Shown: positions 12,204 to 61,880, counted from the stretch's first letter. The stretch is DNA of 64,000 bases from an uncultured Candidatus Saccharibacteria bacterium (GCA_964623335.1 CAZUST010000003.1:869-64868), one strand, 5' to 3'. Notes: generated by a model from the letters alone, not told the origin. Numbers and translations: made by a program.

Positions 12204-13460
12204 ATGGCCAGAGAATACTCGGAAGAGGGTTTTCTTCAGGAAATAGACGACTACTCGCTTGTAGCCAAATACTTTACCGCCAACAGTATCACTGGCTTTT
12301 CATATAATGCGGGCCGTCCGCAAAACAGCGACCAAACGGTTGCCGCAATTAGGGCGGTTATGAACGGACAACCCGACTCTAAAAAACGGGCGATTGAAAA
12401 CGATTTCCAGCGCATAAATAATATGGCGAACGAAAAAGGTTCGCTGAACCTGTTGAGCGAAGCGGCGGACAGAAACCTTGTTTTGCCGATGGCACAAATA
12501 TCGCAAATGAACGTCTATGATAAAGCGTTTTGGTTTTTTATCAATCATCCCGAAGCGTTTGACCAAGCGGATGCGGTCCAACAATTCCTTGACCTGAACG
12601 GCTGGAAACGAACCCCCGCCCCCACTGCTACAATACAATCCGTTTTGGGAAAGAAGAACCAGCTTGAAACTGCATTGAAAAACTATTTCCTCCAAAAAGA
12701 AACCAAGGGCAACTACGGCTCGGTTGAGATGTATCCTAAGGGAAATAACGTTTATGTAGTCGCCCGCTTGACCGACCACGCCGAAGCCAAATTTGTGCCC
12801 GATGAAAGCACAAGTAAGATTGTTAAAAACGGAACTCACCGCCCAATTTTTGAAGTCTATTATCTCTATCGGCGTATTGAAAATGAAGAAGGCAGTGAGT
12901 TGGAAATCAAAGCAAAGGGTGGATGGCAAAAGCAACAAGAACTGCTGGGCGTATTCCTGAAAGCGGTATTTGATGTTGAGTTTGACGACACCCGCCAAAC
13001 TTTTAATCTTGATTTGATAAAAGACCCGAGTTTTAACCTCATAACCGAGGCAAGCGACCAAGTTGAATGGTGGTATTTGAAAGCGGTTGAAATGTCCACC
13101 CCCGACAGAAAATCAAACATCAGGGTAAGCTTGAGGGACGATACGATGCGTGAAACCCGTGCGATGTGGAACCAGCTAACCCGCCTTAACCTCGCCGCCC
13201 AGATGAACAATATGGTTATCAATCGGGTTGATATGAAAATCAAATATACCCCAATCCGACCTCGCCAAAAAGGAACCGTTACTTTCAGTATCAACTGGAA
13301 AGATAGCTGTTCCCTGAACGGAACGGATGAACTCCATATCCGAACCCGCAAAATCCTTAAAAAATCACACCTTGACTGTGGCTTTAATAATCCAACTGCT
13401 CAACAATCTGGCAACCCTACCCCCCGTATCTTTGCCCAACAAGGAATTTCAGGCCAATAA
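12204..13460 (+). CDS. Large hypothetical protein (island cargo, unknown function)
   Basis: A 418-aa ORF with no motif I recognise. It overlaps the next ORF by about 130 bp in a different frame. Confidence 0.45.
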   Translation: MAREYSEEGFLQEIDDYSLVAKYFTANSITGFSYNAGRPQNSDQTVAAIRAVMNGQPDSKKRAIENDFQRINNMANEKGSLNLLSEAADRNLVLPMAQISQMNVYDKAFWFFINHPEAFDQADAVQQFLDLNGWKRTPAPTATIQSVLGKKNQLETALKNYFLQKETKGNYGSVEMYPKGNNVYVVARLTDHAEAKFVPDESTSKIVKNGTHRPIFEVYYLYRRIENEEGSELEIKAKGGWQKQQELLGVFLKAVFDVEFDDTRQTFNLDLIKDPSFNLITEASDQVEWWYLKAVEMSTPDRKSNIRVSLRDDTMRETRAMWNQLTRLNLAAQMNNMVINRVDMKIKYTPIRPRQKGTVTFSINWKDSCSLNGTDELHIRTRKILKKSHLDCGFNNPTAQQSGNPTPRIFAQQGISGQ

Positions 13461-14343
13461 AGAAGAAGCTGAAATCCTCCTTTCCCTTGGCATCTTGCGG
13501 GTTGCAAGCGATACGAAGCAAAGACTTTGCCCCACCTGCGGCAATGAGTTTTTGGATGCGCACTTCGTTAATGATACAAAAGCCTTCACCCAATGCGAAC
13601 AACGCGAAGATGCGGGCCGTGATTATTTCAATCCGCAAGAACTGAAGCAATGGGATTTTGACACCCCCCGTTTTCTCTCCTTGTTCCAACAAGGAATGGG
13701 AATTGCAAACCCCACCGTCAATGAAAATATCACCAATTTATTGTGGAATTTTAATAGCCAAGAAATAAACGGCTCAAACTATCATCTTTTTTTCGCCAGC
13801 AACATAAACGCGCTTGATAGCGCAAAGTTAACGATTGTTACCAGTCTCCCCCAGTGTGCCGTTTTTTATACTGGGACACCTCAAATTGCTCTCCCCGATA
13901 AAGTGCTTTTGATACCCGTGGCCGAAATGATAGCCAATATAACGACAAGCGGCATTGAGCTGAAAGAAACGCTCATCAAACAATTTTTCCCAAGCAGAGT
14001 TCATCTGATGAGCGCAAATGGAATAGAGTTAGATAATAATATTGTGGTTCAGGATGACACTATCCTTTATTCGCCCGTCCGTGGCGGCGTTTTCAAGCAA
14101 CGTTCCCGAATAAGACCCCTCGCCACACGAATAATTGAGCATCTTTACCAAATAAGAAATTACCAAGATAATTACCGAACCCTAACCCAGTTGGCCGATG
14201 ACCTTGGTAGTAGCAAGGTATCAATATCCAACGAGCTTGATAGAGTAAATAAGCTTTGCAAAGCAAGAGGGATTGAACCCATCCTATACAACTTTGGCCG
14301 CGGTAGATGGAGTATCAACCCCACACTTGGCTGTTGCCGTTAA
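13327..14343 (+). CDS. Hypothetical protein with a CPTCG zinc-ribbon-like motif and a C-terminal HTH-like segment
   Basis: A 338-aa ORF. The long overlap with the preceding ORF suggests a frameshift, a fusion or a later true start. Confidence 0.4.
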   Translation: MNSISEPAKSLKNHTLTVALIIQLLNNLATLPPVSLPNKEFQANKEEAEILLSLGILRVASDTKQRLCPTCGNEFLDAHFVNDTKAFTQCEQREDAGRDYFNPQELKQWDFDTPRFLSLFQQGMGIANPTVNENITNLLWNFNSQEINGSNYHLFFASNINALDSAKLTIVTSLPQCAVFYTGTPQIALPDKVLLIPVAEMIANITTSGIELKETLIKQFFPSRVHLMSANGIELDNNIVVQDDTILYSPVRGGVFKQRSRIRPLATRIIEHLYQIRNYQDNYRTLTQLADDLGSSKVSISNELDRVNKLCKARGIEPILYNFGRGRWSINPTLGCCR

Positions 14344-14392
14344 TTCACCAAAACATTCACTAACCACATAATAATTGTGGATTAGTAACACC

Positions 14393-14425
14393 AAAAACCC
14401 CGATTTAAGAGGGGTTTTTGTTTTG
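14393..14425 (+). terminator. Rho-independent terminator
   Basis: AAAAACCCC gatttaaga GGGGTTTTTGTTTTG is a hairpin followed by a T-run. It lies 50 nt after the 13327-14343 ORF. Confidence 0.55.
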
Positions 14426-14520
14426 TTCGGTTGAGATTTGACAACCCTTGGCGGTGAAAGCCACCACCAAATTAACAGTAAAGCTTTGGCCAAAAGCTCA
14501 AATAATTAAACACCATTACT

Positions 14521-14799
14521 ATGGCAAAAAAAATTGAAGACGTAGAATTTGTCCCCTTAAAGGACAGCCCGTCAGTGTTCAGCACTTACGACCTCGGATG
14601 CTCCGCCGCACTTTTGTGCGCTGGTTTTGAGTTGCTATCGCTCAATAAAGAAAATCCCTACAAATCATTGTTTATCTTCAAACGTGAAGACGGGATTGAG
14701 GAGGTTGTTGATGATTACTGGTCCGACAGGTTGGAGGTAAAAGCTCGCTCATTTTTTGACGCAATAAAAGCCCTCAAAAACAGGCTGTATTCCAAGTAA
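14521..14799 (+). CDS. Small hypothetical protein (possibly DUF5659-like)
   Basis: A 92-aa ORF containing STYDLGCSAALLCAGFELLSL. Assignment to a family is tentative. Confidence 0.4.
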   Translation: MAKKIEDVEFVPLKDSPSVFSTYDLGCSAALLCAGFELLSLNKENPYKSLFIFKREDGIEEVVDDYWSDRLEVKARSFFDAIKALKNRLYSK

Positions 14800-14803
14800 C
14801 CCT

Positions 14804-15004
14804 ATGGTCCTCTCTGATAAAAACATCTCCGACTTCCAAGAGCTTTACCGAAAGCATTTTGGAAAGGAAATCGGCAAACAAGAAGCCTACGAGAAAGGCA
14901 TCAAGCTCGTTCGCCTGATGTCGCTCGTTTACAAGCCGATAACCCAAGCAGAGCGGGACCGCGTTGAAACACTCCGCAAAGCAAGCGGAAAAGATAACCA
15001 ATAA
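14804..15004 (+). CDS. Small hypothetical protein
   Basis: A 66-aa ORF 4 nt after the previous one, possibly co-transcribed with it. Confidence 0.3.
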   Translation: MVLSDKNISDFQELYRKHFGKEIGKQEAYEKGIKLVRLMSLVYKPITQAERDRVETLRKASGKDNQ

Positions 15005-15016
15005 CAATTACACACT

Positions 15017-17194
15017 ATGGCTCAAGATAACATTACCATTCAAGAATATCTCACGAAAAAAGGTATCCCGTTCAGGGTGAGCGGCAAAGAGCTTATCGCC
15101 GCCTGCCTCTTTGGCGACTGCGACAAGAACAGCCAAAACGGAGAAGCGCATCTTTACTTTGACAGTGAAACGGGACAATACGACTGCAAAAAATGCGGCG
15201 CAAAAGGCAACCTCATAACCCTCGCCACGCATCTCGGAGACGGGATGCAAGAGATTGCCCGCAATCCCATAACGCCTCCGAAAAATCCACGAAAATCCAC
15301 GAATTTTGACCCCCAGATGGTTGAAACTTGCCATTCGGCACTTCCAGCCGCCATTCGCCAATACCTCAACACCAGAGGCATTTCTGATGCCGTGATTGAG
15401 GCTTACAAGCTGGGCTACGGTAACTTTTACCGCCAACCGTGGATTACCGTTCCCATTAAAGATAATCTGGGCAATTATTCCTTTTTCAAACTGCGCCAAG
15501 ACCCAACCTTCGGAAACGAAAAAATGACTTTCCCAAAAGGCATCCAAGCCCAGCTCTACGACTGGGAAACCGCCCAAGCCAGCGGCGAAACCATTGTTAT
15601 CTGCGAGGGCGAAATGGACCGCCTGCTTTTAGCATCAAAAGGGATAACCGCCATCACCTCCACTCACGGAGCGGGAACCTTCAAAGAAGAATGGGCAAAA
15701 GAGGTTATCGGAAAATATCGGAAAATTTACGTATGTTTTGATAATGACGAAGCGGGACAAAAGGGAGCGCAACGAGTGGTAAAAATGATGGAAAACGATG
15801 GAAATTGCGAGGCCTTCATTACCAACCTGCCGCCAGAAGTTGGCGAAAAAGGCGACATTACCGATTACTTCATAAAACTCAACGGCTCGGTTGACGACCT
15901 GTTCAACAAATATGCCAAACCTTACCCAGAAAAAATTGACGTTTCGCAATTCGCTCCCCTAACGGCAGACCAGCTTGCGGAAACGCTCGGCCTTACCATC
16001 AAACAGGATAAGGAAAACAAACTTGCCACTTTTCTTTGCGAGTTGACCGCTTACTCGGAAAACGCCCAATTCAATATCAGCTACAATGCCCCATCTTCCA
16101 CGGGTAAAAGCTACATCCCTACGGAAATTGCAAAGCTTTTCCCGCAAGAAGACGTGATGGAAATTGCTTATTGCAGTCCCACCGCTTTTTTCCACGATGT
16201 GGGTGAATTTGATAAGGCGCGGGGCGGTTATTTGGTTGACCTATCCCACAAGATACTCATTTTTCTTGACCAACCGCACAACGAACTGCTCGCCCGTTTG
16301 CGCCCGCTCCTTTCCCACGACAAAAAAGAAATCACACTCAAAATTACCGACAAATCGCAAAAGTTCGGATTGAAAACGAAAACCATTCTTTTGCGAGGTT
16401 ATCCAGCCGTTATCTTCTGCACGGCGGGGCTTCGGATTGATGAACAAGAGGCCACCCGCTTTCTTCTGCTCTCTCCCGAAGTAAACCAAGACAAAATCCA
16501 GCAAGGCATCAGTGCCACAATCCGAAAAGAAGCCGACAATGATGAATATGCCGACTGGCTTGATGAAAACCCCGACCGAGTGCTTCTCAAAGAGCGTATC
16601 CGTGCGATTAAGCTGGAAAATATCAAAGAAATAAAAATCACCTCCCAAGACCGCATCAAAGAAAAATTCTTTGGGGACAATAAAACCTTGAAGCCTCGGC
16701 ATCAGCGGGATGTCAGGCGGCTTCTCGCCCTCATCAAATCGCTTGCCCTGCTCAATCTATTTTGGCGTGAACGGAACGGCTCCACAATCACGGCAAATGA
16801 TGACGATATTGATGAGGGATTTAGGCTCTGGGATAGAATATCCGTGAGCCAAGAGCTTAATCTGCCGCCCTATATCTATAACCTTTATCAAGAAATAATC
16901 TTGCCACTGTGGCAAGAAAAAAACGCCACCAGCGAAGAATTAGGCACACACACGGGAGTTATCGGCATAACCCGCCAAGAAGTGCTTGAAAGGCATTTTG
17001 GGGTCTATGGAAGGATGCTGGACTGCCACCAACTGCGGCAACAAATACTGCCGATGCTGGAAACGGCGGGCCTCATCGTCCAAGAACAAGACCAAAACGA
17101 CAAGCGGAAAATCCTTATCTTTCCCGCCTCACTGCGCCAATTATCGGGCAACCAAACAAATAGTGAAACCGAGAGTGGGGTAAATACCAATTAA
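15017..17194 (+). CDS. Phage/plasmid-type DNA primase (zinc finger plus Toprim) with a large C-terminal domain
   Basis: N-terminal CLFGDCD...CKKCG zinc finger. Toprim motifs VICEGEMDRLL and VCFDNDEAGQKG are present. Confidence 0.7.
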   Translation: MAQDNITIQEYLTKKGIPFRVSGKELIAACLFGDCDKNSQNGEAHLYFDSETGQYDCKKCGAKGNLITLATHLGDGMQEIARNPITPPKNPRKSTNFDPQMVETCHSALPAAIRQYLNTRGISDAVIEAYKLGYGNFYRQPWITVPIKDNLGNYSFFKLRQDPTFGNEKMTFPKGIQAQLYDWETAQASGETIVICEGEMDRLLLASKGITAITSTHGAGTFKEEWAKEVIGKYRKIYVCFDNDEAGQKGAQRVVKMMENDGNCEAFITNLPPEVGEKGDITDYFIKLNGSVDDLFNKYAKPYPEKIDVSQFAPLTADQLAETLGLTIKQDKENKLATFLCELTAYSENAQFNISYNAPSSTGKSYIPTEIAKLFPQEDVMEIAYCSPTAFFHDVGEFDKARGGYLVDLSHKILIFLDQPHNELLARLRPLLSHDKKEITLKITDKSQKFGLKTKTILLRGYPAVIFCTAGLRIDEQEATRFLLLSPEVNQDKIQQGISATIRKEADNDEYADWLDENPDRVLLKERIRAIKLENIKEIKITSQDRIKEKFFGDNKTLKPRHQRDVRRLLALIKSLALLNLFWRERNGSTITANDDDIDEGFRLWDRISVSQELNLPPYIYNLYQEIILPLWQEKNATSEELGTHTGVIGITRQEVLERHFGVYGRMLDCHQLRQQILPMLETAGLIVQEQDQNDKRKILIFPASLRQLSGNQTNSETESGVNTN

Positions 17195-17204
17195 CTAAAA
17201 AACT

Positions 17205-17726
17205 ATGGAAGGAATATCTCAAAAGCAAATTGAAGCTAACCGCCAAAACGCCAAACTCGGCGGCGTTAAAACCGAGGAGGGCAAGGCGGTAAGCAGATAC
17301 AATGCGATAAAGCACGGCCTATTGAGCAAAGAAGTTTTGCTTGAGGGCGAAGACGAGGCAACACTTTTGGAAATCGGCAAACGATTGAGAACAGAATTAA
17401 CACCGCAAACAGAGTTTGAACTGGTGCTCGTTGATAGGATAACCGCCAATGTTTGGCGATTAAGGCGAGTTATGCAAATTGAACGGGAAATGATTGATGA
17501 TGACAGGAAGAATACTTATGATGGTGGAATAAAAACGCTCGGAGAAGCCTTAAGTTACGACTTTTCCAATAATGACACTTATGGAAAACTAATTCGCTAC
17601 GAAAGCAGTATTGAGCGGGGTATTTATAAAGCCCTACACGAGTTGCAACGACTTCAAGCAAGACGCAATGGCGAAAAAATACCACTCCCCGTTGCCATTG
17701 ACGTTGATGTTGACGAAAAAGAATGA
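17205..17726 (+). CDS. Hypothetical protein
   Basis: A 173-aa ORF between the primase and the recombinase. Confidence 0.4.
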   Translation: MEGISQKQIEANRQNAKLGGVKTEEGKAVSRYNAIKHGLLSKEVLLEGEDEATLLEIGKRLRTELTPQTEFELVLVDRITANVWRLRRVMQIEREMIDDDRKNTYDGGIKTLGEALSYDFSNNDTYGKLIRYESSIERGIYKALHELQRLQARRNGEKIPLPVAIDVDVDEKE

Positions 17727-17815
17727 TTGGGTTCGTTTCGTAAAAATATGGTGGAAAATGACGGATAAAATAGGGGTTTCCTTAATGATTTCGGCAATAA
17801 AATTAAGAAAAAATT

Positions 17816-18421
17816 ATGGGAAGGTATTACTTTTCAACCAAAACCGAGGCGGATAATCTTAAAAAAATAGATATAAGCTGGCTGAAACACCAAGGTCTTT
17901 TGCAAGGATGGCATTCAAGCACAATATCGTGGACCAATGGCTTTACGGGCGATAAAAGCAGTGTTGGAATTGAGATTTCCGTTTTAAGCAAGGAACGATA
18001 TGCTCGCATCCACTATACCCAAACGGGACAGAACGAAGAAAAGCGGTATTTTGATTACCGCATACCCATTACCTCAACTCCCTGCAATTATGGCGGAGAA
18101 AGATATTGGTTCACCTGTCCGTGGTATAAAAATGGTAACTACTGCGGACAGCGCGTAAGAACACTATACAAAGCTGGTGATTATTTCGCCTGCCGCCATT
18201 GTTATAACCTAACCTATAGCGACCGAAACGCTAACCGCCGCTATCGGATGTTACCCCTGTTCAATACTTTGCTCGTTGAAAAGAAAATTGATGAACTACA
18301 AAACAAGATTAAAAAGCCGTTTTATGCGGGGAAACCGACAAAAAAACGGCTAAGGCTGGAAAAGCTCTATCGGCAAGCAACGACCAGCTACTCTCGCCTA
18401 AAAGAAGAAAAATTGATATAA
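17816..18421 (+). CDS. Hypothetical Cys-rich (zinc-finger-like) protein
   Basis: CNYGG...CPWYKNGNYCG...CRHC cysteine clusters. Confidence 0.4.
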   Translation: MGRYYFSTKTEADNLKKIDISWLKHQGLLQGWHSSTISWTNGFTGDKSSVGIEISVLSKERYARIHYTQTGQNEEKRYFDYRIPITSTPCNYGGERYWFTCPWYKNGNYCGQRVRTLYKAGDYFACRHCYNLTYSDRNANRRYRMLPLFNTLLVEKKIDELQNKIKKPFYAGKPTKKRLRLEKLYRQATTSYSRLKEEKLI

Positions 18422-18524
18422 TGACCTTGTTGTCCCACTCATTTATAAAACGAGGAGTTTTTATATACCTCGTTGCCCTAAAGGGGCGGTCTGCCAATGA
18501 GGCTTACTCTTCGGATTAAGTGAG

Positions 18525-20174
18525 TTGGGACAACCAGACCGTCCCTTTTGGTATATGAACACACCAACCAATAAAAAAATCACATATTTCCTTTACGCCC
18601 GTAAATCCTCGGAAAGCGAGGACAGGCAAGTTCAGTCCATTGAGGACCAAGTAAACCGCCTTAAGGAGTTGGCCCGTAGTTTTAATATTGAAATAAAGGA
18701 AATTCTCACAGAGGCTAAATCCGCAAAAAAACCTAATTTCCGCCCCGTTTTCAGCGATATGTTGAAGCGTATTGAAAAGGGCGAAGCCAATGGCATTTTA
18801 TGCTGGCAAATTAATCGCCTTTCCCGTAACCCCGTTGATAGCGGGACCTTGAGCTGGATGCTTCAACAAGGCGTTTTGCAGTGTATACAAACCATAGACC
18901 GCAAATATCTACCAGACGATAATGTTTTGCTTTTCAGCGTTGAAAGCGGAATGGCTAATCAATTTATCATAGACCTGCGCAAAAACAGCCGAAGAGGTAT
19001 GGAAGGCAAAGCACAACGAGGTTGGCTCCCAAGTCAAGCACGCGTGGGTTATCAAAATGACTTGCTTCAACATACCATCGTCAAAGACCCTGAACGATTT
19101 GATTTGGTTCGCAAGATGTGGGATTTGATGCTTACGGGTAATTACACTCCGCCACAAATAAGAAGAATAGCTAACAACGAATGGGGCTTCAGGACCAAAA
19201 AACGCAAAAGGAAGGGTGGAGATGAGATTTCAAATGCCGCGATTTATAAGCTGTTCACTAACCTTTTTTATACGGGAATGTTTGAATGGGCGGGAGTAAC
19301 TTACCAAGGCAATCACCCGCCGATGATTACGCTGGAAGAGTATGACAGAGTTCAGGTCATCCTTGGCAAAAGAGGTAAACCGAGGGCTAAAAACCACGAG
19401 TTTGCATACACTGGTATCATTTATTGCAAGGATTGCGGGTCAATGTATACCGCTTGTGAAAAAACTAAAATAGTGAAAAGCACTGGGGGGTTAAAAACCT
19501 ATGTTTATTATTTTTGCACAAAAAAGAAACGTGGCGTTAAATGCCTCCACGCTAAACCTGTAAGGCTTGAAGACCTTGAAGAGCAAATTGAGGCAGAGAT
19601 TGAAAAATATACAATTTTACCAGAGTTCCGACAATGGGCTTTGGATATTTTGGCAAAACAAAACAATACCGAAATTAACGACCGAGCTAAGGTTTATGAA
19701 ATGCAACACGCCTCTTTTACGGAAACCCAAAAAGAGCTGGATAACCTAACCCGTATGCGTTACAAAGATATGATTGATGACGAAACCTTTGTCAAAGAAA
19801 GCAACATCTTGAAAGATAAAATTGCGAAAATCAAGGATGCTTTAAGGCAAACAGAGACCCGTGCCGAAAAATGGCTTGAGCTTACCGAAAAAACATTCCA
19901 TTTCGCCACTTATGCCCGCTCCGCCTTCTTAAATGGCAACTCAAGGCAGAAACGGGAGATACTCACCGCTCTTGGCTGGAACTTTTCAATAAAAGACAAA
20001 AAACTGCTTATAGAGCCTAACGAATGGCTTGTCCCGATAGCAAAAGCCTATCCTGCGCTTGAAAGCGAATATAGGCGGCTGGAACTAACTAAAAACCTCA
20101 CTTTTGAAGCTAAAAATGAGGCTTTAGTCGCAATAAACGCTCAATGGCGGGCCAGACGGGATTTGAACCCGTAA
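18525..20174 (+). CDS. Large serine recombinase (integrase)
   Basis: Resolvase-type N-terminus YARKSSESEDRQVQSIEDQ carries the catalytic Ser. A recombinase domain and a Cys zinc ribbon (CKDCG...C..C) follow. The stop lies inside tRNA-Asp. Confidence 0.8.
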   Translation: MGQPDRPFWYMNTPTNKKITYFLYARKSSESEDRQVQSIEDQVNRLKELARSFNIEIKEILTEAKSAKKPNFRPVFSDMLKRIEKGEANGILCWQINRLSRNPVDSGTLSWMLQQGVLQCIQTIDRKYLPDDNVLLFSVESGMANQFIIDLRKNSRRGMEGKAQRGWLPSQARVGYQNDLLQHTIVKDPERFDLVRKMWDLMLTGNYTPPQIRRIANNEWGFRTKKRKRKGGDEISNAAIYKLFTNLFYTGMFEWAGVTYQGNHPPMITLEEYDRVQVILGKRGKPRAKNHEFAYTGIIYCKDCGSMYTACEKTKIVKSTGGLKTYVYYFCTKKKRGVKCLHAKPVRLEDLEEQIEAEIEKYTILPEFRQWALDILAKQNNTEINDRAKVYEMQHASFTETQKELDNLTRMRYKDMIDDETFVKESNILKDKIAKIKDALRQTETRAEKWLELTEKTFHFATYARSAFLNGNSRQKREILTALGWNFSIKDKKLLIEPNEWLVPIAKAYPALESEYRRLELTKNLTFEAKNEALVAINAQWRARRDLNP

Positions 20175-20222
20175 TCTCCTCCGTGACAGGGAGGCGTGAT
20201 AACCAGGTTACACTACTAGCCC
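20145..20222 (-). tRNA. tRNA-Asp (anticodon GTC), CCA encoded
   Basis: Minus-strand sequence GGGCTAGTAGTGTAACCTGGTTATCACGCCTCCCTGTCACGGAGGAGATTACGGGTTCAAATCCCGTCTGGCCCGCCA folds as a cloverleaf. The anticodon loop CTGTCAC gives anticodon GTC. Confidence 0.8.
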
Positions 20223-20738: not shown

Positions 20739-20870
20739 GCAAGTATTTGGTAACGGAATTTAGTAACCGCTCACCGGGGAGCAAAAAACGGATTTGTTGA
20801 GGTTTGATTTCATCTTTAAGAAGTCAATCTTCAACAAATCCGCGGCGGTAAAATGGGACACAAATCCGTA

Positions 20871-21003
20871 AAAAATATTTCCCGAATGGGTTTCGATATC
20901 GCGGGATGTTAACCCCCCCGAACCGGCCAAAGGAACACCCCCTTGAAATCATCGACATCCGCAACCCCGAAGCAAAATATCGGAGAATTACGGATTTTGA
21001 AGC
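20871..21003 (+). ncRNA. Copy a of the 'AT-box plus three-hairpin' structured element (candidate ncRNA or structured intergenic repeat)
   Basis: Homologous to the copies at 25171, 31205 and 35381, with the same AAAAATATTTCC..ATG box followed by three hairpins. It lies downstream of the candidate promoter and contains no ORF. Confidence 0.45.
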
Positions 21004-25158: not shown

Positions 25159-25170
25159 TTTTATTCCGTA

Positions 25171-25305
25171 AAAAATATATTTCCAAAATGTGTTTCAATA
25201 CCGCGGGGCGTTAACCCCGCGAATCAGCCGAAGGAGCGCCTCCTTGGAAATCCTCGAAATCCGCAATCTTGAGGCAAAACCTCAAGGAATTGCGGATTCT
25301 AAAAG
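25171..25305 (+). repeat. Copy b of the 'AT-box plus three-hairpin' structured element
   Basis: Box AAAAATATATTTCCAAAATGTGTTTC, then hairpins CCGCGGGGcgttaaCCCCGCG, AAGGAGcgcCTCCTT and ATCCGCAATcTTGAGGcaaaaCCTCAAggaATTGCGGAT. It starts 13 nt from the mreB start codon. Confidence 0.6.
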
Positions 25306-29711: not shown

Positions 29712-29900
29712 CCGCGGAAATACCGTGCCACTTTGCGGTAGTTTATTTACCCGCCGGAATCCCTCGGGGATGAATGGCGGGGAATCAAACTATCACGCCG
29801 CCTTGGGCGCGCGGTAGTTTATTTACCCGCCGGAATCCCTCGGGGCCCTGCCCCGGGGATGAACGGCGGGGAATCAAACTATTGCAACGCTTTGCGATAG
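29712..29900. repeat. Tandem array of two full and one degenerate GC-rich hairpin repeat units (family 'GC-hairpin')
   Basis: The unit is ..GCGCGCGGTAGTTTATTTACCCGCCGGAATCCCTCGGGG(ccctgcccc)ATGAACGGCGGGGAATCAAACTAT... The stem CCCGCCG/CGGCGGG encloses ATCCC/GGGAT. The array abuts the stop codon of mreB paralog 2. Confidence 0.7.
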
Positions 29901-30900: not shown

Positions 30901-30984
30901 ATCAGTTCGAAAATTTATTAATCTGGCAGAATACCCCGACGCAGAACATCAAGAATAGATGCCAGCCCGTAGCATAACGGTAAC

Positions 30985-31135
30985 GAAGCGGAGGATTAAC
31001 AAACTTTTTCGCGAGAATACCGCGCCGCCTTGGGCGCGCGGTAGTTTATTTACCCGCCGGAATCCCTCGGGGATGAACGGCGGGGAATCAAACTATCACG
31101 CCGCCTTGGGCGCGCGGTAGTTTATTGAGAAAGTC
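30985..31135. repeat. GC-rich hairpin repeat unit plus partial unit, with the GAGGATTAACAAACTTTTTCGCG flank
   Basis: Same unit as at 29.7 kb, including the identical ACCCGCCGGAATCCCTCGGGGATGAACGGCGGGG core. Confidence 0.7.
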
Positions 31136-31320: not shown

Positions 31321-31572
31321 GGCGCGCCCCGGGGCAAAGCCCCGAGGTATTCTGGCGGGTAAATAAAGAAAAGGAGCGATTGAATCGCCCATGCCGTTAC
31401 GTGTCAGCGGGCGCACCCGACTCGCACCTCCTTAATGTCGCTTTGACAATTACTCCGGAAAGAGCGCGCGGTTCACCATCTTTGCGCTCCGCGCGAAAAC
31501 ATTCCGGGTGAATGCATATCGGACCGGCTAAATCCGTCATTGTTACGACCTCTTTTGCAATGTTTATATTAT

Positions 31573-31761
31573 AGACCTACTGCGTAAATATTTCCTACTG
31601 CAATTTCCATATTTTGGCTGCGCCGAATTCGTCAATCGTCGGCATATTTAAGCCAATATGCCTCCCTCGTTTTTGTGAAACGAGACTGCGAGCAGACATT
31701 CCTCATTCGGCTCGCGCGAAATCTGAAAATTTAGTCGCGTAAATATTTACGCAGTAGGTCT
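31573..31761. mobile_element. MITE-like element copy 1 (189 bp, 21-bp terminal inverted repeats AGACCTACTGCGTAAATATTT)
   Basis: The termini are exact reverse complements. Internal hairpins include CTCGTTTttgtgaaACGAG. The copy at 32996-33185 is nearly identical. Confidence 0.65.
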
Positions 31762-31767
31762 TATAAT

Positions 31768-32949
31768 TTAATTCTTCCGGTTTTCAGCCAGCACTGTCGC
31801 GACAACTACCGCCAGCACGACCGCAGAACCGGTAAAGAAAAGCCGGCGGTAGCCCAGAGGAGCGATCAGTAATCCCGCGGTTAAAGAACCGAGGGCCGTA
31901 CCCAAGGGCGAAAAAATCGTGTCGAACGCGGCCGCCTCTTCCGGTTCGTTCTTAGATTTGCCGGCGATCAAAGACGAACGGCCGGCGTTGCAAATAAACG
32001 CGCCAGCACCTTTAAAAAAATCCACGATAAATACCGCCAGGAAATTCAGACAGGCCGCCGGAAAGGCGAAAAAACCGGAAAACAGTCCCGCGGTCACCGC
32101 GCCCCGGATAATACTGGCACGGCCATTGTTCTTTTGATGCCGGCGGATGAAAACAAAATAGATAACCGAAAAAAATGCCGACGAGGCCGCGGTGTAGAAG
32201 ATCACCATATCGCGAGTCCAAGCCAGCGAGTCTTTAAGAAAAAGGACGAAAAATGCCGCGTAAAGGCCGCTCATCCAAAGCACCGCCGAAGATACGGCCA
32301 GATAAGGCAGTATTTTGATATCGGCGATACGCGCAAAAAGATGCCGCCACTGGGCGGTCCAACCAGTTAGGGAAATTTTGCGGCCGTTAAATTTAGCCGA
32401 AACACCCCAAAGGCGCGTTGCGGCCACGGCCAGCGCGGACAAAGTGATGGCCACGCTCAATGAGAAAACCGCCGTAAAACCGGAGCGCCAAATCAAAAAT
32501 CCACCGATAACCGGCGCGATCGCATCGGCCCAGATGGGCGCGTTATAAAACCAGGAAAATCCGTGCTCGATATTTCGCAAAGGATAGGCCATCAACAAGA
32601 TGCGGCAGGAAGTAAAAAATAGCGACGCCGAAACCCCCAGCGCAATCTGCCAGTAATAGAAATACGTTTCCCGGGCGCCAAAAATCATCGCCAGCGCGTA
32701 GGCGCCGTAGCCAAAAATTCCCAACATCATCATCAACGCCGGATTGGTTTTGCGCGAAAAAAATCCGGCCAGCGGGGCGCACAACGCGATCGGCAAATAA
32801 ACCAGCAGATAAGAATAACCAATTTGCGGCAACGAAAGCCCTTCAGCCGCCAAGAACAACGGGAAATAAGCCGAAAACAGTTTATAACCGAACATCAGTA
32901 AAAAATGAACCGCGGTAACATCGCGGACAACCAAGGAATTATTTTCCAT
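31768..32949 (-). CDS. MFS-family transporter
   Basis: About 12 predicted TM helices with MFS-like organisation. The gene is flanked on both sides by the same MITE. Confidence 0.7.
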   Translation of the reverse strand: MENNSLVVRDVTAVHFLLMFGYKLFSAYFPLFLAAEGLSLPQIGYSYLLVYLPIALCAPLAGFFSRKTNPALMMMLGIFGYGAYALAMIFGARETYFYYWQIALGVSASLFFTSCRILLMAYPLRNIEHGFSWFYNAPIWADAIAPVIGGFLIWRSGFTAVFSLSVAITLSALAVAATRLWGVSAKFNGRKISLTGWTAQWRHLFARIADIKILPYLAVSSAVLWMSGLYAAFFVLFLKDSLAWTRDMVIFYTAASSAFFSVIYFVFIRRHQKNNGRASIIRGAVTAGLFSGFFAFPAACLNFLAVFIVDFFKGAGAFICNAGRSSLIAGKSKNEPEEAAAFDTIFSPLGTALGSLTAGLLIAPLGYRRLFFTGSAVVLAVVVATVLAENRKN

Positions 32950-32995
32950 ACAAAATTATTCTAGCACAACAATTAAATTTAAGTATTTATATAAT

Positions 32996-33185
32996 AGACC
33001 TGCTGCGTAAATATTTCCTACTGCAATTTCCATATTTTGGCTGCGCCGAATTCGTCAATCGTCGGCATATTTAAGCCAATATGCCTCCCTCGTTTTTGTG
33101 AAACGAGACTGCGAGCAGACATTCCTCATTCGGCTCGCGCGAAATCTGAAAATTTAGTCGCGTAAATATTTACGCAGTAGGTCTA
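32996..33185. mobile_element. MITE-like element copy 2 (190 bp), direct orientation relative to copy 1
   Basis: About 99% identical to copy 1, with one TIR mismatch (AGACCTGCTG). Confidence 0.65.
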
Positions 33186-33238
33186 ATAAAAAAAGCATTT
33201 TCTCGTTCCTTTTGTATAAAAAGAAATAAGAAAATGCT

Positions 33239-33853
33239 TTATAACGATACGGGCCAGTCAGCCTGTATCTCCTGTATCTTTTGCAATTCTTTCATTGCCG
33301 CCATCGCATATTCCTGCTTGGGGCTTTGGGTCAGCCCCATAAGCGCCATGCAGTGCATGCGCTTGCCCTTGCCGCTCAACAGCCCCTTGCCGGAAATACC
33401 TTTTGCCTCATTAGCCGGCTCAAAGGTTTGGGCCAGTGTGTGCAATGTTTCCGTATCCACCCAGATCACTTCTCTGTCGTCCCCGCTATCGGCAAAAGTG
33501 AAACGGGGATGCGGCTCGTGATAAATCGTAACCATAGCTTGGTCACGCGTCTTCTCGTTTCCGAGAAAGACGGTGTAAAATGCCGGCATTTTTGAAAGGA
33601 AAATTCTTATTCCGGCACGATCCAACACCGCCTTTTCGACGGTCAACGCGGCGTGATTATAGCCGTACTTATCACCTTCGGTGGTAAGCATAGCACGACC
33701 CGGCAACTCAAAATTACCACGGTAGGAAACCCCTTCGTTGATTGAAGTGGTTGCGGTGCGGCGGTAGAGAAGTAATTTCCCAAAATCTTTTCCCTCTTCA
33801 TTGTTAATTATCGCAGCGTAAACGCCGATCGATGCGATTATTTTTTCTTCCAA
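33239..33853 (-). CDS. Hypothetical protein, possibly a Nudix-fold protein with a degenerate Nudix box
   Basis: GNFELPGRAML...EKAVLDRAGI resembles GX5EX7REUXEEXGU, but the catalytic Glu residues are not conserved. Confidence 0.35.
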   Translation of the reverse strand: MEEKIIASIGVYAAIINNEEGKDFGKLLLYRRTATTSINEGVSYRGNFELPGRAMLTTEGDKYGYNHAALTVEKAVLDRAGIRIFLSKMPAFYTVFLGNEKTRDQAMVTIYHEPHPRFTFADSGDDREVIWVDTETLHTLAQTFEPANEAKGISGKGLLSGKGKRMHCMALMGLTQSPKQEYAMAAMKELQKIQEIQADWPVSL

Positions 33854-35328: not shown

Positions 35329-35380
35329 TACCATAAGTGTTGTAATCGGTTTTTAAAAGCTGCGGCACAGGGCGGTTGTA

Positions 35381-35516
35381 AAAAATATATTTTCCAAATG
35401 TGTCTCGATACCGCGGGGCGTTAATGCCGCGGATCAGCCAAAGGAGCGCCTCTTTGGGAATCCTCGAAATCAGTAATCCTGAGGCAAGATCTCAAGGAAT
35501 TACCGATTTTAAAAAC
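35381..35516 (+). repeat. Copy d of the 'AT-box plus three-hairpin' structured element (in the 3' UTR of the plus-strand gene 34003-35328, before its terminator)
   Basis: About 85% identical to copy b. Stem changes are CCGCAAT to CAGTAAT and ATTGCGG to ATTACCG. Confidence 0.6.
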
Positions 35517-35778: not shown

Positions 35779-35857
35779 CGGAGCAAAACCCCGGGTATTC
35801 TGGCGGGGAAATAAAACCCAAAAGGTATGTTTACCATCGAAAGGGATCCTTTAATCC

Positions 35858-43732: not shown

Positions 43733-43916
43733 ATTACCCGCCGGAATCCCACGGGGCCTTGCTCCGGGGATGAATGGCGGGGAATCAAACTAGCGGGGCG
43801 CCTTGGGCGCGCGGTAGTTTATTTCCCCGCCGGAATCCCACGGGGCCTTGCTCCGGGGATGAATGGCGGGGAATCAAACTAGCGGGGCGCCTTGGGCGCG
43901 CGGTAGTTTATTTGTC
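43733..43916. repeat. Two perfect tandem 89-bp GC-rich hairpin repeat units
   Basis: ACCCGCCGGAATCCCACGGGGCCTTGCTCCGGGGATGAATGGCGGGGAATCAAACTAGCGGGGCGCCTTGGGCGCGCGGTAGTTTATTT occurs twice (89-bp period). The array sits between galT and the GT2 gene. Confidence 0.75.
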
Positions 43917-52876: not shown

Positions 52877-53314
52877 CTACAATTCCTTTTTCACGAATTT
52901 TGTCTTGATCGGCATTTTATCTCCGGCCTTTTCAAGGGCCTCGCGGGCCAAATCCTCTTTAACACCGTCCAATTCAAACATTATCCGGCCCGGCTTGACC
53001 ACAAACACATAATGATCCACGCCGCCCTTTCCGCCGCCCAGCGGCACTTCTTCGCCTTTACTGGTCACGGGCTTGTCCGGAAAAATGCGGATCCACAATT
53101 TGCCGCCTTTCTTCAAATATCTTAATATCGCGCGGCGTCCGGCTTCAATCTGGCGGGAGGAAATCCATTTTTCTTCCATCGCTTTCAAACCGAAATTACC
53201 GTAATTCAGTTCGGCTCCGCGATACGAAAGCCCTATTCCCCGGCGCCGGCCTTTCTGCCATTTCCGGTGCTTTACTTTTTTTGGCATCAACATACTCGTA
53301 AATTCAACTTTCAA
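52877..53314 (-). CDS. rplP: Ribosomal protein L16
   Basis: [19 protein letters not shown]... Confidence 0.9.
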
Positions 53315-53382
53315 CTATTAACTTTTGATTTTTAACGAAATTAGGATTCGTTAATGGTTAACAGTTGGGGTCAATAGTTATT

Positions 53383-54851: not shown

Positions 54852-54922
54852 AATTTAAATTCAACTTTCAACTATTAACTTTTGACGAAATCTTTTTTTG
54901 TTAATAGTTAACAGTTAATGGT

Positions 54923-61635: not shown

Positions 61636-61780
61636 AAGTTAATTTTTAATTTTCAGTCTTCAATTTTTAAACAAAATGTTTAAAAATTGGCATTGAAAAT
61701 TAAATAGAATTTATAAGTTAGTTGTTTGGATTGATTCAATAGATTATCGCGCGTCCAAGGCGGTGCGGCATTCCCGCGGA

Positions 61781-61880
61781 AAAGTTTATTAATCCTCCGC
61801 GGCGCGGCCGCCACCCTGCGGACTGGTATTCATCCCCGCCGCGGAGCCTCGGGGCATTCCGCCGGATTAATAAATTAAAA
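61781..61880. repeat. Diverged GC-rich palindromic repeat (reverse orientation of the GC-hairpin family) in the fusA-rpsG spacer
   Basis: CCGCGGAAAAGTTTATTAATCCTCCGCGGCGCGG...CCGCCGCGGAGCCTCGGGGCATTCCGCCGGATTAATAAA. Its reverse complement matches the TTTATT.ATCCGGCGGAAT.CCCCGAGG core. Confidence 0.55.

Follow-up and report, generated by a model that had tools for sequence, protein, structure and literature searches.

A 64-kb stretch of DNA from an uncultured Candidatus Saccharibacteria bacterium (GCA_964623335.1 CAZUST010000003.1:869-64868; here called the window, with coordinates counted from its first letter) contains a gene for an MFS transporter that is bracketed by two 189-bp elements. 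[quoted passage not shown] The family behaves as an ordinary bacterial MITE; its members are small and devoid of a transposase gene, end in terminal inverted repeats, are flanked by target-site duplications, occupy many unrelated sites and are polymorphic for their insertion. A MITE had already been proposed in an initial annotation of the window; the further copies, the target-site duplications and the presence/absence polymorphism described below speak for that proposal, and those of its suggested checks that could be run had a favourable outcome.

A repeat search in the window returned a direct repeat of 204 nt (31563-31766 and 32986-33189, 99% identity), within which the two element copies occupy positions 31573-31761 and 32996-33184. 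The 189-bp copies differ by one base only: in the left terminus of copy 2, A is replaced by G at position 7. The 21-mer AGACCTACTGCGTAAATATTT that forms the terminus is found at four sites of the window, namely 31573 (+), 31741 (-), 32996 (+, one mismatch) and 33164 (-), while it did not occur in 100 dinucleotide-preserving shuffles of the window. Perfectly complementary termini are present in copy 1 only, copy 2 having one mismatch. Both copies point in the same direction. The largest open reading frame (ORF) inside the element comprises at most 42 amino acids (aa), and the element as a whole is predicted to fold as one long imperfect hairpin, both as RNA (-75.3 kcal/mol, z = -8.8) and as DNA (-42.3 kcal/mol, z = -7.1). 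The two direct repeats of about 99% identity with the MFS ORF between them, as well as the hairpin-forming, noncoding interior, had been recognized correctly in the initial annotation. Its element boundaries hold for copy 1 and for the start of copy 2, the end of which is at 33184 and not at 33185; likewise, the exact reverse complementarity claimed for the ends of each copy is true of copy 1 but not of copy 2.

The family was traced in an exact scan of a species-representative genome collection, in which the terminus AGACCTNCTGCGTAAATATTT was found at 29 loci, and in a metagenome scan, which contributed 91 more; the copies elsewhere for which a search had been advised are thus numerous. By our own arithmetic, a sequence with 20 fixed positions would be matched about once by chance in 2 x 596 Gb. 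Contigs with a match belong to the Patescibacteria metagenome-assembled genome (MAG) UBA6102 (seven contigs), to CAYHZE01 (eight), DAOSDI01 (five), UBA5738 (three) and CAYIQI01 (one), and to two Sungiibacteriota MAGs (one each). Three further, single termini in genomes of Aerococcaceae, Raineya and Desulfobacterales were regarded as chance matches, with neither a partner terminus nor a family-like interior. For many of the terminus matches, a contig end is no more than about 100 nt away, as is expected of a dispersed repeat that breaks assemblies.

After removal of duplicates, 61 unique complete insertions were retained. They range from 34 to 273 bp, with most of them around 159 bp, and the size variants (34, 51, 71, 113, approximately 159, 189, 205, 210, and 273 bp) have the same termini. 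The 189-bp form of the window, which is the 159-bp form enlarged by a small additional stem-loop (CTCGTTT..AAACGAG), is also found in loci L030 (where it is ended by the contig end), L056, L078, L085, and L098, and in truncated form in L004/L065. The 34-bp form is the exact remnant expected of a deletion between the 8-bp sequences AAATATTT located at the inner edge of each terminus. Two subfamilies can be distinguished, whose cores are unrelated, each being palindromic on its own; subfamily B contains a different palindrome as its core. The 21-bp termini are kept across all family members, and copies from different species-level genomes are 97-100% identical.

Outside the elements, the two 204-nt repeats of the window differ only at position -3 and position +1, with copy 1 reading TAT/element/TAT and copy 2 reading AAT/element/AAT. 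A correlated difference at exactly these positions is as predicted by a 3-bp target-site duplication, and the same register emerges from the family. In 46 of the 61 insertions, the three bases before the element recur after it, compared with 21.7 +/- 3.4 for shuffled pairings (maximum 32 in 2000 shuffles), and no enrichment was seen among these insertions for duplication lengths of 1, 2 or 4. The pairs AAT/AAT and ATT/ATT (n = 20 each) prevail over mixed pairs (n = 8), and rare triplets co-vary, with TTT/TTT occurring three times in addition to ATG/ATG, AAA/AAA, and TAT/TAT. A TA duplication of the IS630-like type is ruled out by the lack of enrichment at a length of 2, by the excess of AAT/AAT and ATT/ATT over mixed pairs and by the co-varying rare triplets. 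Of the junction duplications noted initially as TA or TAT, the presence is therefore upheld, while the TA register is replaced by triplets, namely TAT at copy 1 and AAT at copy 2. A at -3 and T at -1 are found in 56 of the 61 insertions, and the flanks follow a palindromic, AT-rich consensus of roughly ATTATWT-AWT-AWATAAT. The two orientations are equally frequent (26:26), and 49 of the 51 scorable insertions are intergenic, located between tandem (36), divergent (9) or convergent (4) genes.

Insertion is documented most clearly by a pair of occupied and empty sites. The occupied site in locus L113 reads ...AAAATAAAGC TTT[159 bp]TTT GACTATGAGCG..., while the corresponding site in contig L008 of UBA6102 is ...AAAATAAAAC TTT GACTATGAGCG...; over 120 nt of flanking sequence, the identity of the two is 98.3%, and the difference amounts to exactly 159 + 3 bp. 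Less clean empty sites were found at L008:4996, L079/L112, and L084. Orthologous occupied sites are common only to close strains with flanks of 94-99% identity. Identities of 97-100% across species-level genomes, though occupied sites are shared only by close strains, point to recent activity of the family.

The locus in the window can be compared with that of related bacteria. Homologues of the MFS protein (P0002 and P0003) have 79% identity and the same neighbourhood, and the gene order in the relatives, which is a 204-aa gene (or a PEGA-domain gene), MFS, MreB, DNA polymerase III delta' (holB), RRF, and an M50 protease, is the reverse complement of the window at 26.5-33.9 kb. The MFS gene adjoins MreB in L122, L123, L125, and L126 without any elements. 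In L125/L126, the spacers flanking it measure 104 and 86 nt, so that no element would fit, and the MFS-downstream spacer of L122/L124, which lacks the element, can be aligned over the point at which copy 1 was inserted. The site reads TTAAATTATA[189 bp]ATAATATAAACATTGCAAAAGAGG in the window and TTAATTGTATATTAATATAAATATCGCAAAGAGG in L122; together with L113 and L008, this shows presence/absence polymorphism of the element. As judged from its synteny in element-free relatives and from the separate duplication at each copy, the MFS gene was already at the site when the two elements were inserted, independently of each other.

Either insertion has its own surroundings. Copy 1 now stands between the MFS gene and a small 47-aa ORF, for which L122/L124 have a counterpart at the corresponding place that shares the motif I/FC.HP.CF; in L122, this counterpart follows 40 nt after MFS and has its own ribosome-binding site. 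The ORF is probably an unannotated small protein gene. Copy 2 is located between the terminator hairpin of the 204-aa gene and a promoter-like TGnTAGAAT box, which is kept in the relatives as TGTTACAAT. The arrangement is common to five samples of the species, that is, the window and four others. Contigs from SRR6476076, ERR14064752, 3300019140, and 3300018489 carry the same MFS (99.6-100% identity) entering an element on both sides, and on one further contig the 204-aa gene runs into copy 2. On L133 (JGI 3300018489; aligned to window positions 31634-33097), two indels split MFS into ORFs of 151 and 150 aa; this may reflect a pseudogenized allele or an error of sequencing. The features of the locus are compiled in Table 1.

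Table 1. The two elements, their termini and duplications, and the adjacent features of the MFS locus in the window.
Feature	Position	Strand	Remarks
MITE copy 1	31573..31761	+	189 bp; 6 nt past MFS stop codon, between MFS and small conserved ORF
Copy 1 left 21-bp terminal inverted repeat	31573..31593	+	AGACCTACTGCGTAAATATTT
Copy 1 right 21-bp terminal inverted repeat	31741..31761	-	Perfect complement of the left one
Copy 1 target-site duplication TAT, left	31570..31572		Partner 31762-31764; family statistics
Copy 1 target-site duplication TAT, right	31762..31764		Partner 31570-31572
MITE copy 2	32996..33184	+	189 bp; 46 nt upstream of MFS start codon
Copy 2 left terminal inverted repeat	32996..33016	+	AGACCTGCTGCGTAAATATTT, one mismatch
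Copy 2 right terminal inverted repeat	33164..33184	-	Match to 21-mer
Copy 2 target-site duplication AAT, left	32993..32995		Partner 33185-33187; family statistics
Copy 2 target-site duplication AAT, right	33185..33187		Partner 32993-32995
MFS transporter gene	31768..32949	-	393 aa, PF07690; resident, syntenic in relatives
Small 47-aa ORF	31397..31540	-	AAGAGG ribosome-binding site; immediately downstream of copy 1, between MFS and MreB
Terminator-like hairpin with T-run	33192..33240	-	After upstream 204-aa gene; copy 2 just downstream

According to the mechanism proposed here, the element, which has two 21-bp inverted termini, GAAAT/ATTTC motifs that are conserved in subterminal position, and a core that varies but is self-complementary, would be a non-autonomous DNA transposon. 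Its termini would be bound by a transposase provided in trans, which would introduce a 3-bp staggered cut at a target resembling the above consensus, the central AWT of which would be duplicated upon insertion. Copy 1 would have landed 6 nt after the stop codon of the resident MFS gene, with duplication of TAT, and copy 2, probably by a local hop, 46 nt upstream of the start codon, with duplication of AAT. The pair around MFS would then be a by-product of the intergenic target preference and not a gene vehicle.

Several points weigh against independent insertion of MITEs at this locus. Within the 64-kb window, which is the part of this genome that was scanned, only two copies are visible, and a base-by-base alignment of the copy-2 site with the relatives was not achieved because they are too diverged. 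No transposase gene bounded by the family termini was found in 810 kb of DNA fetched around the copies, nor was a transposase present among the ten window ORFs scanned against Pfam. Matching duplications are absent from 15 of the 61 insertions, some of which have chimeric flanks; contigs with such flanks account for part of these cases. Finally, the window copies share the seven bases TTTATAT 5' of their different duplications (31563-31569 and 32986-32992) and the two bases AA 3' of them (31765-31766 and 33188-33189). From the position frequencies in the family, the chance of this joint agreement is estimated by us at about 1e-3 to 1e-4, and target preference explains it only partly.

A different history would have both MITEs and MFS (31573-33184) form one mobile unit, a composite transposon, that arrived here or now moves the transporter; in the initial annotation, the arrangement had been said to resemble a composite transposon that could move or delete the transporter or recombine it out. 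Such a unit would be bounded by inverted termini, each MITE has both ends, and MITE-flanked class 1 integrons, in which identical direct MITEs bracket a gene segment as at the window, are documented in Acinetobacter (PMC10969869). Of a one-piece arrival, a single outer duplication would be expected, but the outer flanks differ (TAT to the left of copy 1, AAT to the right of copy 2) and each copy has its own matching duplication. Furthermore, element-free relatives keep MFS in synteny with MreB, holB, RRF, and the M50 protease, MFS homologues are frequent in Patescibacteria, and a transposase was not found in the DNA searched. The unequal duplications and the synteny are therefore taken to rule out delivery of MFS by the elements, so that its arrival as a unit with them is largely refuted and the composite as a whole very improbable. 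In contrast to the Acinetobacter units, the gene bracketed at the window is ancestral, each MITE has its own duplication, and the bracket is coincidental. Future co-mobilization of MFS is conceivable in principle; there is no sign of it here. An equally slight chance is given to a non-mobile duplicate, in which the MFS locus alone would have a locally duplicated operator, terminator or small-RNA region, namely the 204-bp repeat. The repeat does reach 10 nt and 5 nt past the termini, the arrangement is fixed in the five samples of the species, and the sense strand of MFS has a weak terminator-like hairpin with a T-run at the inner edge. These features have to be set against the occurrence of the same element at no fewer than 61 unrelated sites in many genomes and in both orientations, against the duplications and the empty site, and against the lack of an Rfam match even at E values up to 10. 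As the origin of the pair, duplicated regulatory sequence is refuted, while a regulatory side-effect of the insertions is possible.

Hardly credible is an assembly artefact, in which a repeat-induced misjoin would have put MFS between two collapsed copies. Repeats of 159-189 bp exceed typical k-mers and read lengths, and chimeric flank combinations do occur among the metagenome contigs, but in independent Logan/JGI assemblies from four other samples MFS runs into the element on both sides, and in one the 204-aa gene runs into copy 2; moreover, the resulting gene order agrees with that of the relatives, the copies are one base apart and their duplications are different. The chimeric contigs join the left flank of one insertion to the right flank of another. 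Examples are L080, whose left flank is that of L101 and whose right flank is that of L001/L081, and L116, in which the inverted right flank of L113 is joined to the right flank of L101. Such contigs have arisen either by genuine rearrangement between MITE copies or by misjoining over the 159-bp repeat. By RecA-dependent recombination between the 189-bp direct repeats (99.5% identity), deletion of MFS would be mechanistically possible. Neither an MFS-deletion allele nor an element-lacking allele was present among the recovered contigs, which is weak evidence of their absence, given that short-read contigs break at the repeat; same-protein look-ups with MFS, MreB, and the 204-aa gene for a deletion allele likewise returned only short contigs broken at repeats.

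The hairpin of the element is well conserved. In a 42-pair consensus stem derived from 14 diverse members, 98% of the cells are paired, and changes on both sides are found at 6 of the 42 pairs, compared with 2.6 +/- 0.9 in shuffles and 0-2 with partners slid by 1-3 columns. Self-complementarity of the element is maintained, which could be due to a requirement of transposition, to repair within the palindrome, or to a host-level role such as RNase processing. By the insertion of copy 1, a hairpin with a stem of about 75 bp is placed in the 3' region of MFS, where it may affect processing of the transcript. It is conceivable, though on balance unlikely, that the MITE has been exapted, meaning that it arrived by transposition and was kept on account of its long hairpin, whose effect on the MFS transcript might, for instance, be that of an RNase III site, of an attenuator between MFS and the small ORF, or of an insulator upstream of the promoter. 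This would be compatible with separate insertion around a resident gene. It would agree with the compensatory changes that preserve pairing across subfamilies (the 6 of 42 pairs), with the different yet palindromic core of subfamily B and with the fixation of both copies in five samples, and RNase processing is documented for Correia and ERIC elements in mRNAs (PMC10969869). On the other hand, conservation of the hairpin could serve transposition itself or stem from repair within the palindrome, and the spread of insertions over tandem, divergent and convergent intergenic regions does not indicate a single regulatory role.

The search for a full-length insertion sequence (IS) of the family was based on inverted pairs of the 16-nt outer terminus with up to three mismatches, 400-6000 bp apart, in the 810 kb of loci, and matched only the window pair and L033. 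The latter was rejected as a full-length IS, being two separate 113-bp MITEs around unrelated IS4-, IS701-, and IS630-like genes. Unpaired termini in L005/L097, L015, L031/L083/L087, L004/L065, and L013, which were considered as possible ends of transposase-bearing elements, are truncated or short derivatives. Plasmids and phages (BLAST of the element) and viral contigs (exact scan) gave chance-level matches or none. A further reading, which is given a small probability only, is that of an orphan MITE that would now be active and spreading horizontally across Patescibacteria species without a resident transposase, mobilized by an enzyme of another replicon, of the host or of a partner, with the hairpin being either needed for this unusual propagation or adopted as an RNA-processing or termination module. 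It is compatible with the data because of the 97-100% identity across species, the occupied sites found only in close strains, and the transposase unseen in 810 kb.

The element has no match in Rfam at the gathering threshold, nor at E values up to 10, in the literature the terminus strings gave only unrelated matches, and none of the papers searched was found to describe MITEs of a Patescibacteria (Candidate Phyla Radiation, CPR) family; on these grounds, the family appears to be undescribed so far. Duplications of 3 bp at palindromic triplets are made by the IS1031 group of the IS5 family (TNA) and by PIF/Harbinger-Tourist elements (TWA), and members of the IS30 family duplicate 2-3 bp at palindromic AT-rich sites. 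The window family resembles all of these in its 3-bp duplication, symmetric AT-rich target, and termini of 20-26 bp. It differs from the IS1031 group and PIF/Harbinger-Tourist in that its target triplet is AWT and not TNA or TWA, and an assignment to any of these families would be provisional, no transposase having been found in the DNA searched. With Correia elements of Neisseria, ERIC of enterobacteria, and RUP of pneumococcus, it shares a length of 100-200 bp, a noncoding nature, inverted termini of 20-26 bp, a hairpin comprising the whole element, intergenic sites, a high copy number in either orientation, and variants with internal deletions. The duplication is TA in Correia and RUP, in contrast to the 3 bp at AWT in the window family. 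The hosts differ as well, being Patescibacteria in the present case, and according to Rfam, BLAST and the literature there is no sequence relation to any of the three. Elements of the Correia/ERIC/RUP type are recombination hotspots and RNase substrates (PMC10969869).

Other classes of repeats were considered and rejected. REP/BIME sequences are GC-rich palindromes of 20-40 bp with a GTAG/CGTC tag and no duplication, which are associated with a RAYT transposase; the element measures 189 bp, its termini are of the AGACC type and it duplicates 3 bp (no search aimed at a RAYT gene was made). An integron attC site or gene cassette (RYYYAAC...GTTRRRY, IntI) does not apply, as the element ends in AGACCT...AGGTCT and the GTTRRRY core is absent; in only one of the ten scanned ORFs of the window was a recombinase detected, which is of the large serine type (18525-20174). 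No covariance-model match in Rfam assigns the element to a described structured RNA family.

Some observations concern the loci outside the window. The 113-bp MITE at L033:856-968, L033:4646-4758, and L046:320-432 has nearly the same terminus (AGACCTCCTGCGTAAATATTT) and an unrelated core. The contig is not Patescibacteria-like and is rich in IS4-, IS701-, and IS630-like genes, and one of the copies disrupts the ORF of an IS4-like transposase; this type of terminus may go back further, and be spread more widely, than Patescibacteria. At L061:4487-4520 and L077:1022-1055, a 34-bp solo palindrome is flanked by ATT/ATT, while the same site in L104:5375-5779 and L043 is occupied by a 405-bp segment with a different MITE-like palindrome (GTAAAGAAATAAGTTCC...) and a small ORF. 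These alternatives at one site suggest an element-associated deletion or replacement. The genome DAOSDI01 (L004, L010, L012, L019, and L026) is labelled 'Candidatus Pacearchaeota archaeon AMR_MDS_1835' in the public record; since it encodes AspRS, RecQ, FtsZ, ValRS, and enolase of the bacterial type, this archaeal label is almost certainly wrong.

The window itself contains further repeats. A second, GC-rich and hairpin-forming family of 89 nt, with units such as GCGGTAGTTTATTTACCCGCCGGAATCCC...CGCCTTGGGCGCGCGGTAGTTTATT, is found at 29735-29823, 31038-31126, and 43735-43912, being tandem at the last of these sites (43.7 kb). Its inverted partners are located at 31327-31367 and 35789-35815. A direct intergenic family of 137 nt with 69-87% identity is located at 20866-21002, 25168-25304, and 35378-35514, and a 139-nt inverted pair at 30912-31050 and 61738-61876 (74%). 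Owing to the 89-nt family and the other repeat families, the spacer between MreB and MFS is a repeat cluster. An exact 30-nt direct repeat, TAAATTCAACTTTCAACTATTAACTTTTGA, occurs in the ribosomal-protein region at 53299-53328 and 54856-54885, 1557 nt apart. Amid mostly minus-strand genes, positions 12204-20222 form a plus-strand block with two ORFs without a Pfam match, a 725-aa Toprim-domain protein (15017-17194), and the large serine recombinase mentioned above (549 aa), which abuts tRNA-Asp (20145-20222) and two tRNA-Met genes. The block has the appearance of a mobile element, or of the remnant of a prophage, that was integrated at a tRNA site.

Patescibacteria, with genomes of about 1 Mb, are generally held to be poor in mobile DNA. 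They are a mostly uncultured, tiny-genome, and under-studied group, and the finding in the window represents ordinary biology there. The MITE family, as defined by its 21-bp termini, the 3-bp AWT duplication, and the palindromic target, accounts for assembly breaks at AT-rich intergenic sites of Patescibacteria genomes, and its termini (AGACCTNCTGCG...CGCAGNAGGTCT) provide a bait sequence for finding the transposase. Being well defined and, as it appears, recently active, the family is a marker for strain-level rearrangement in Patescibacteria. The MFS transporter, in turn, is a core syntenic gene and not horizontally delivered cargo, which the direct repeats now surrounding it could delete.

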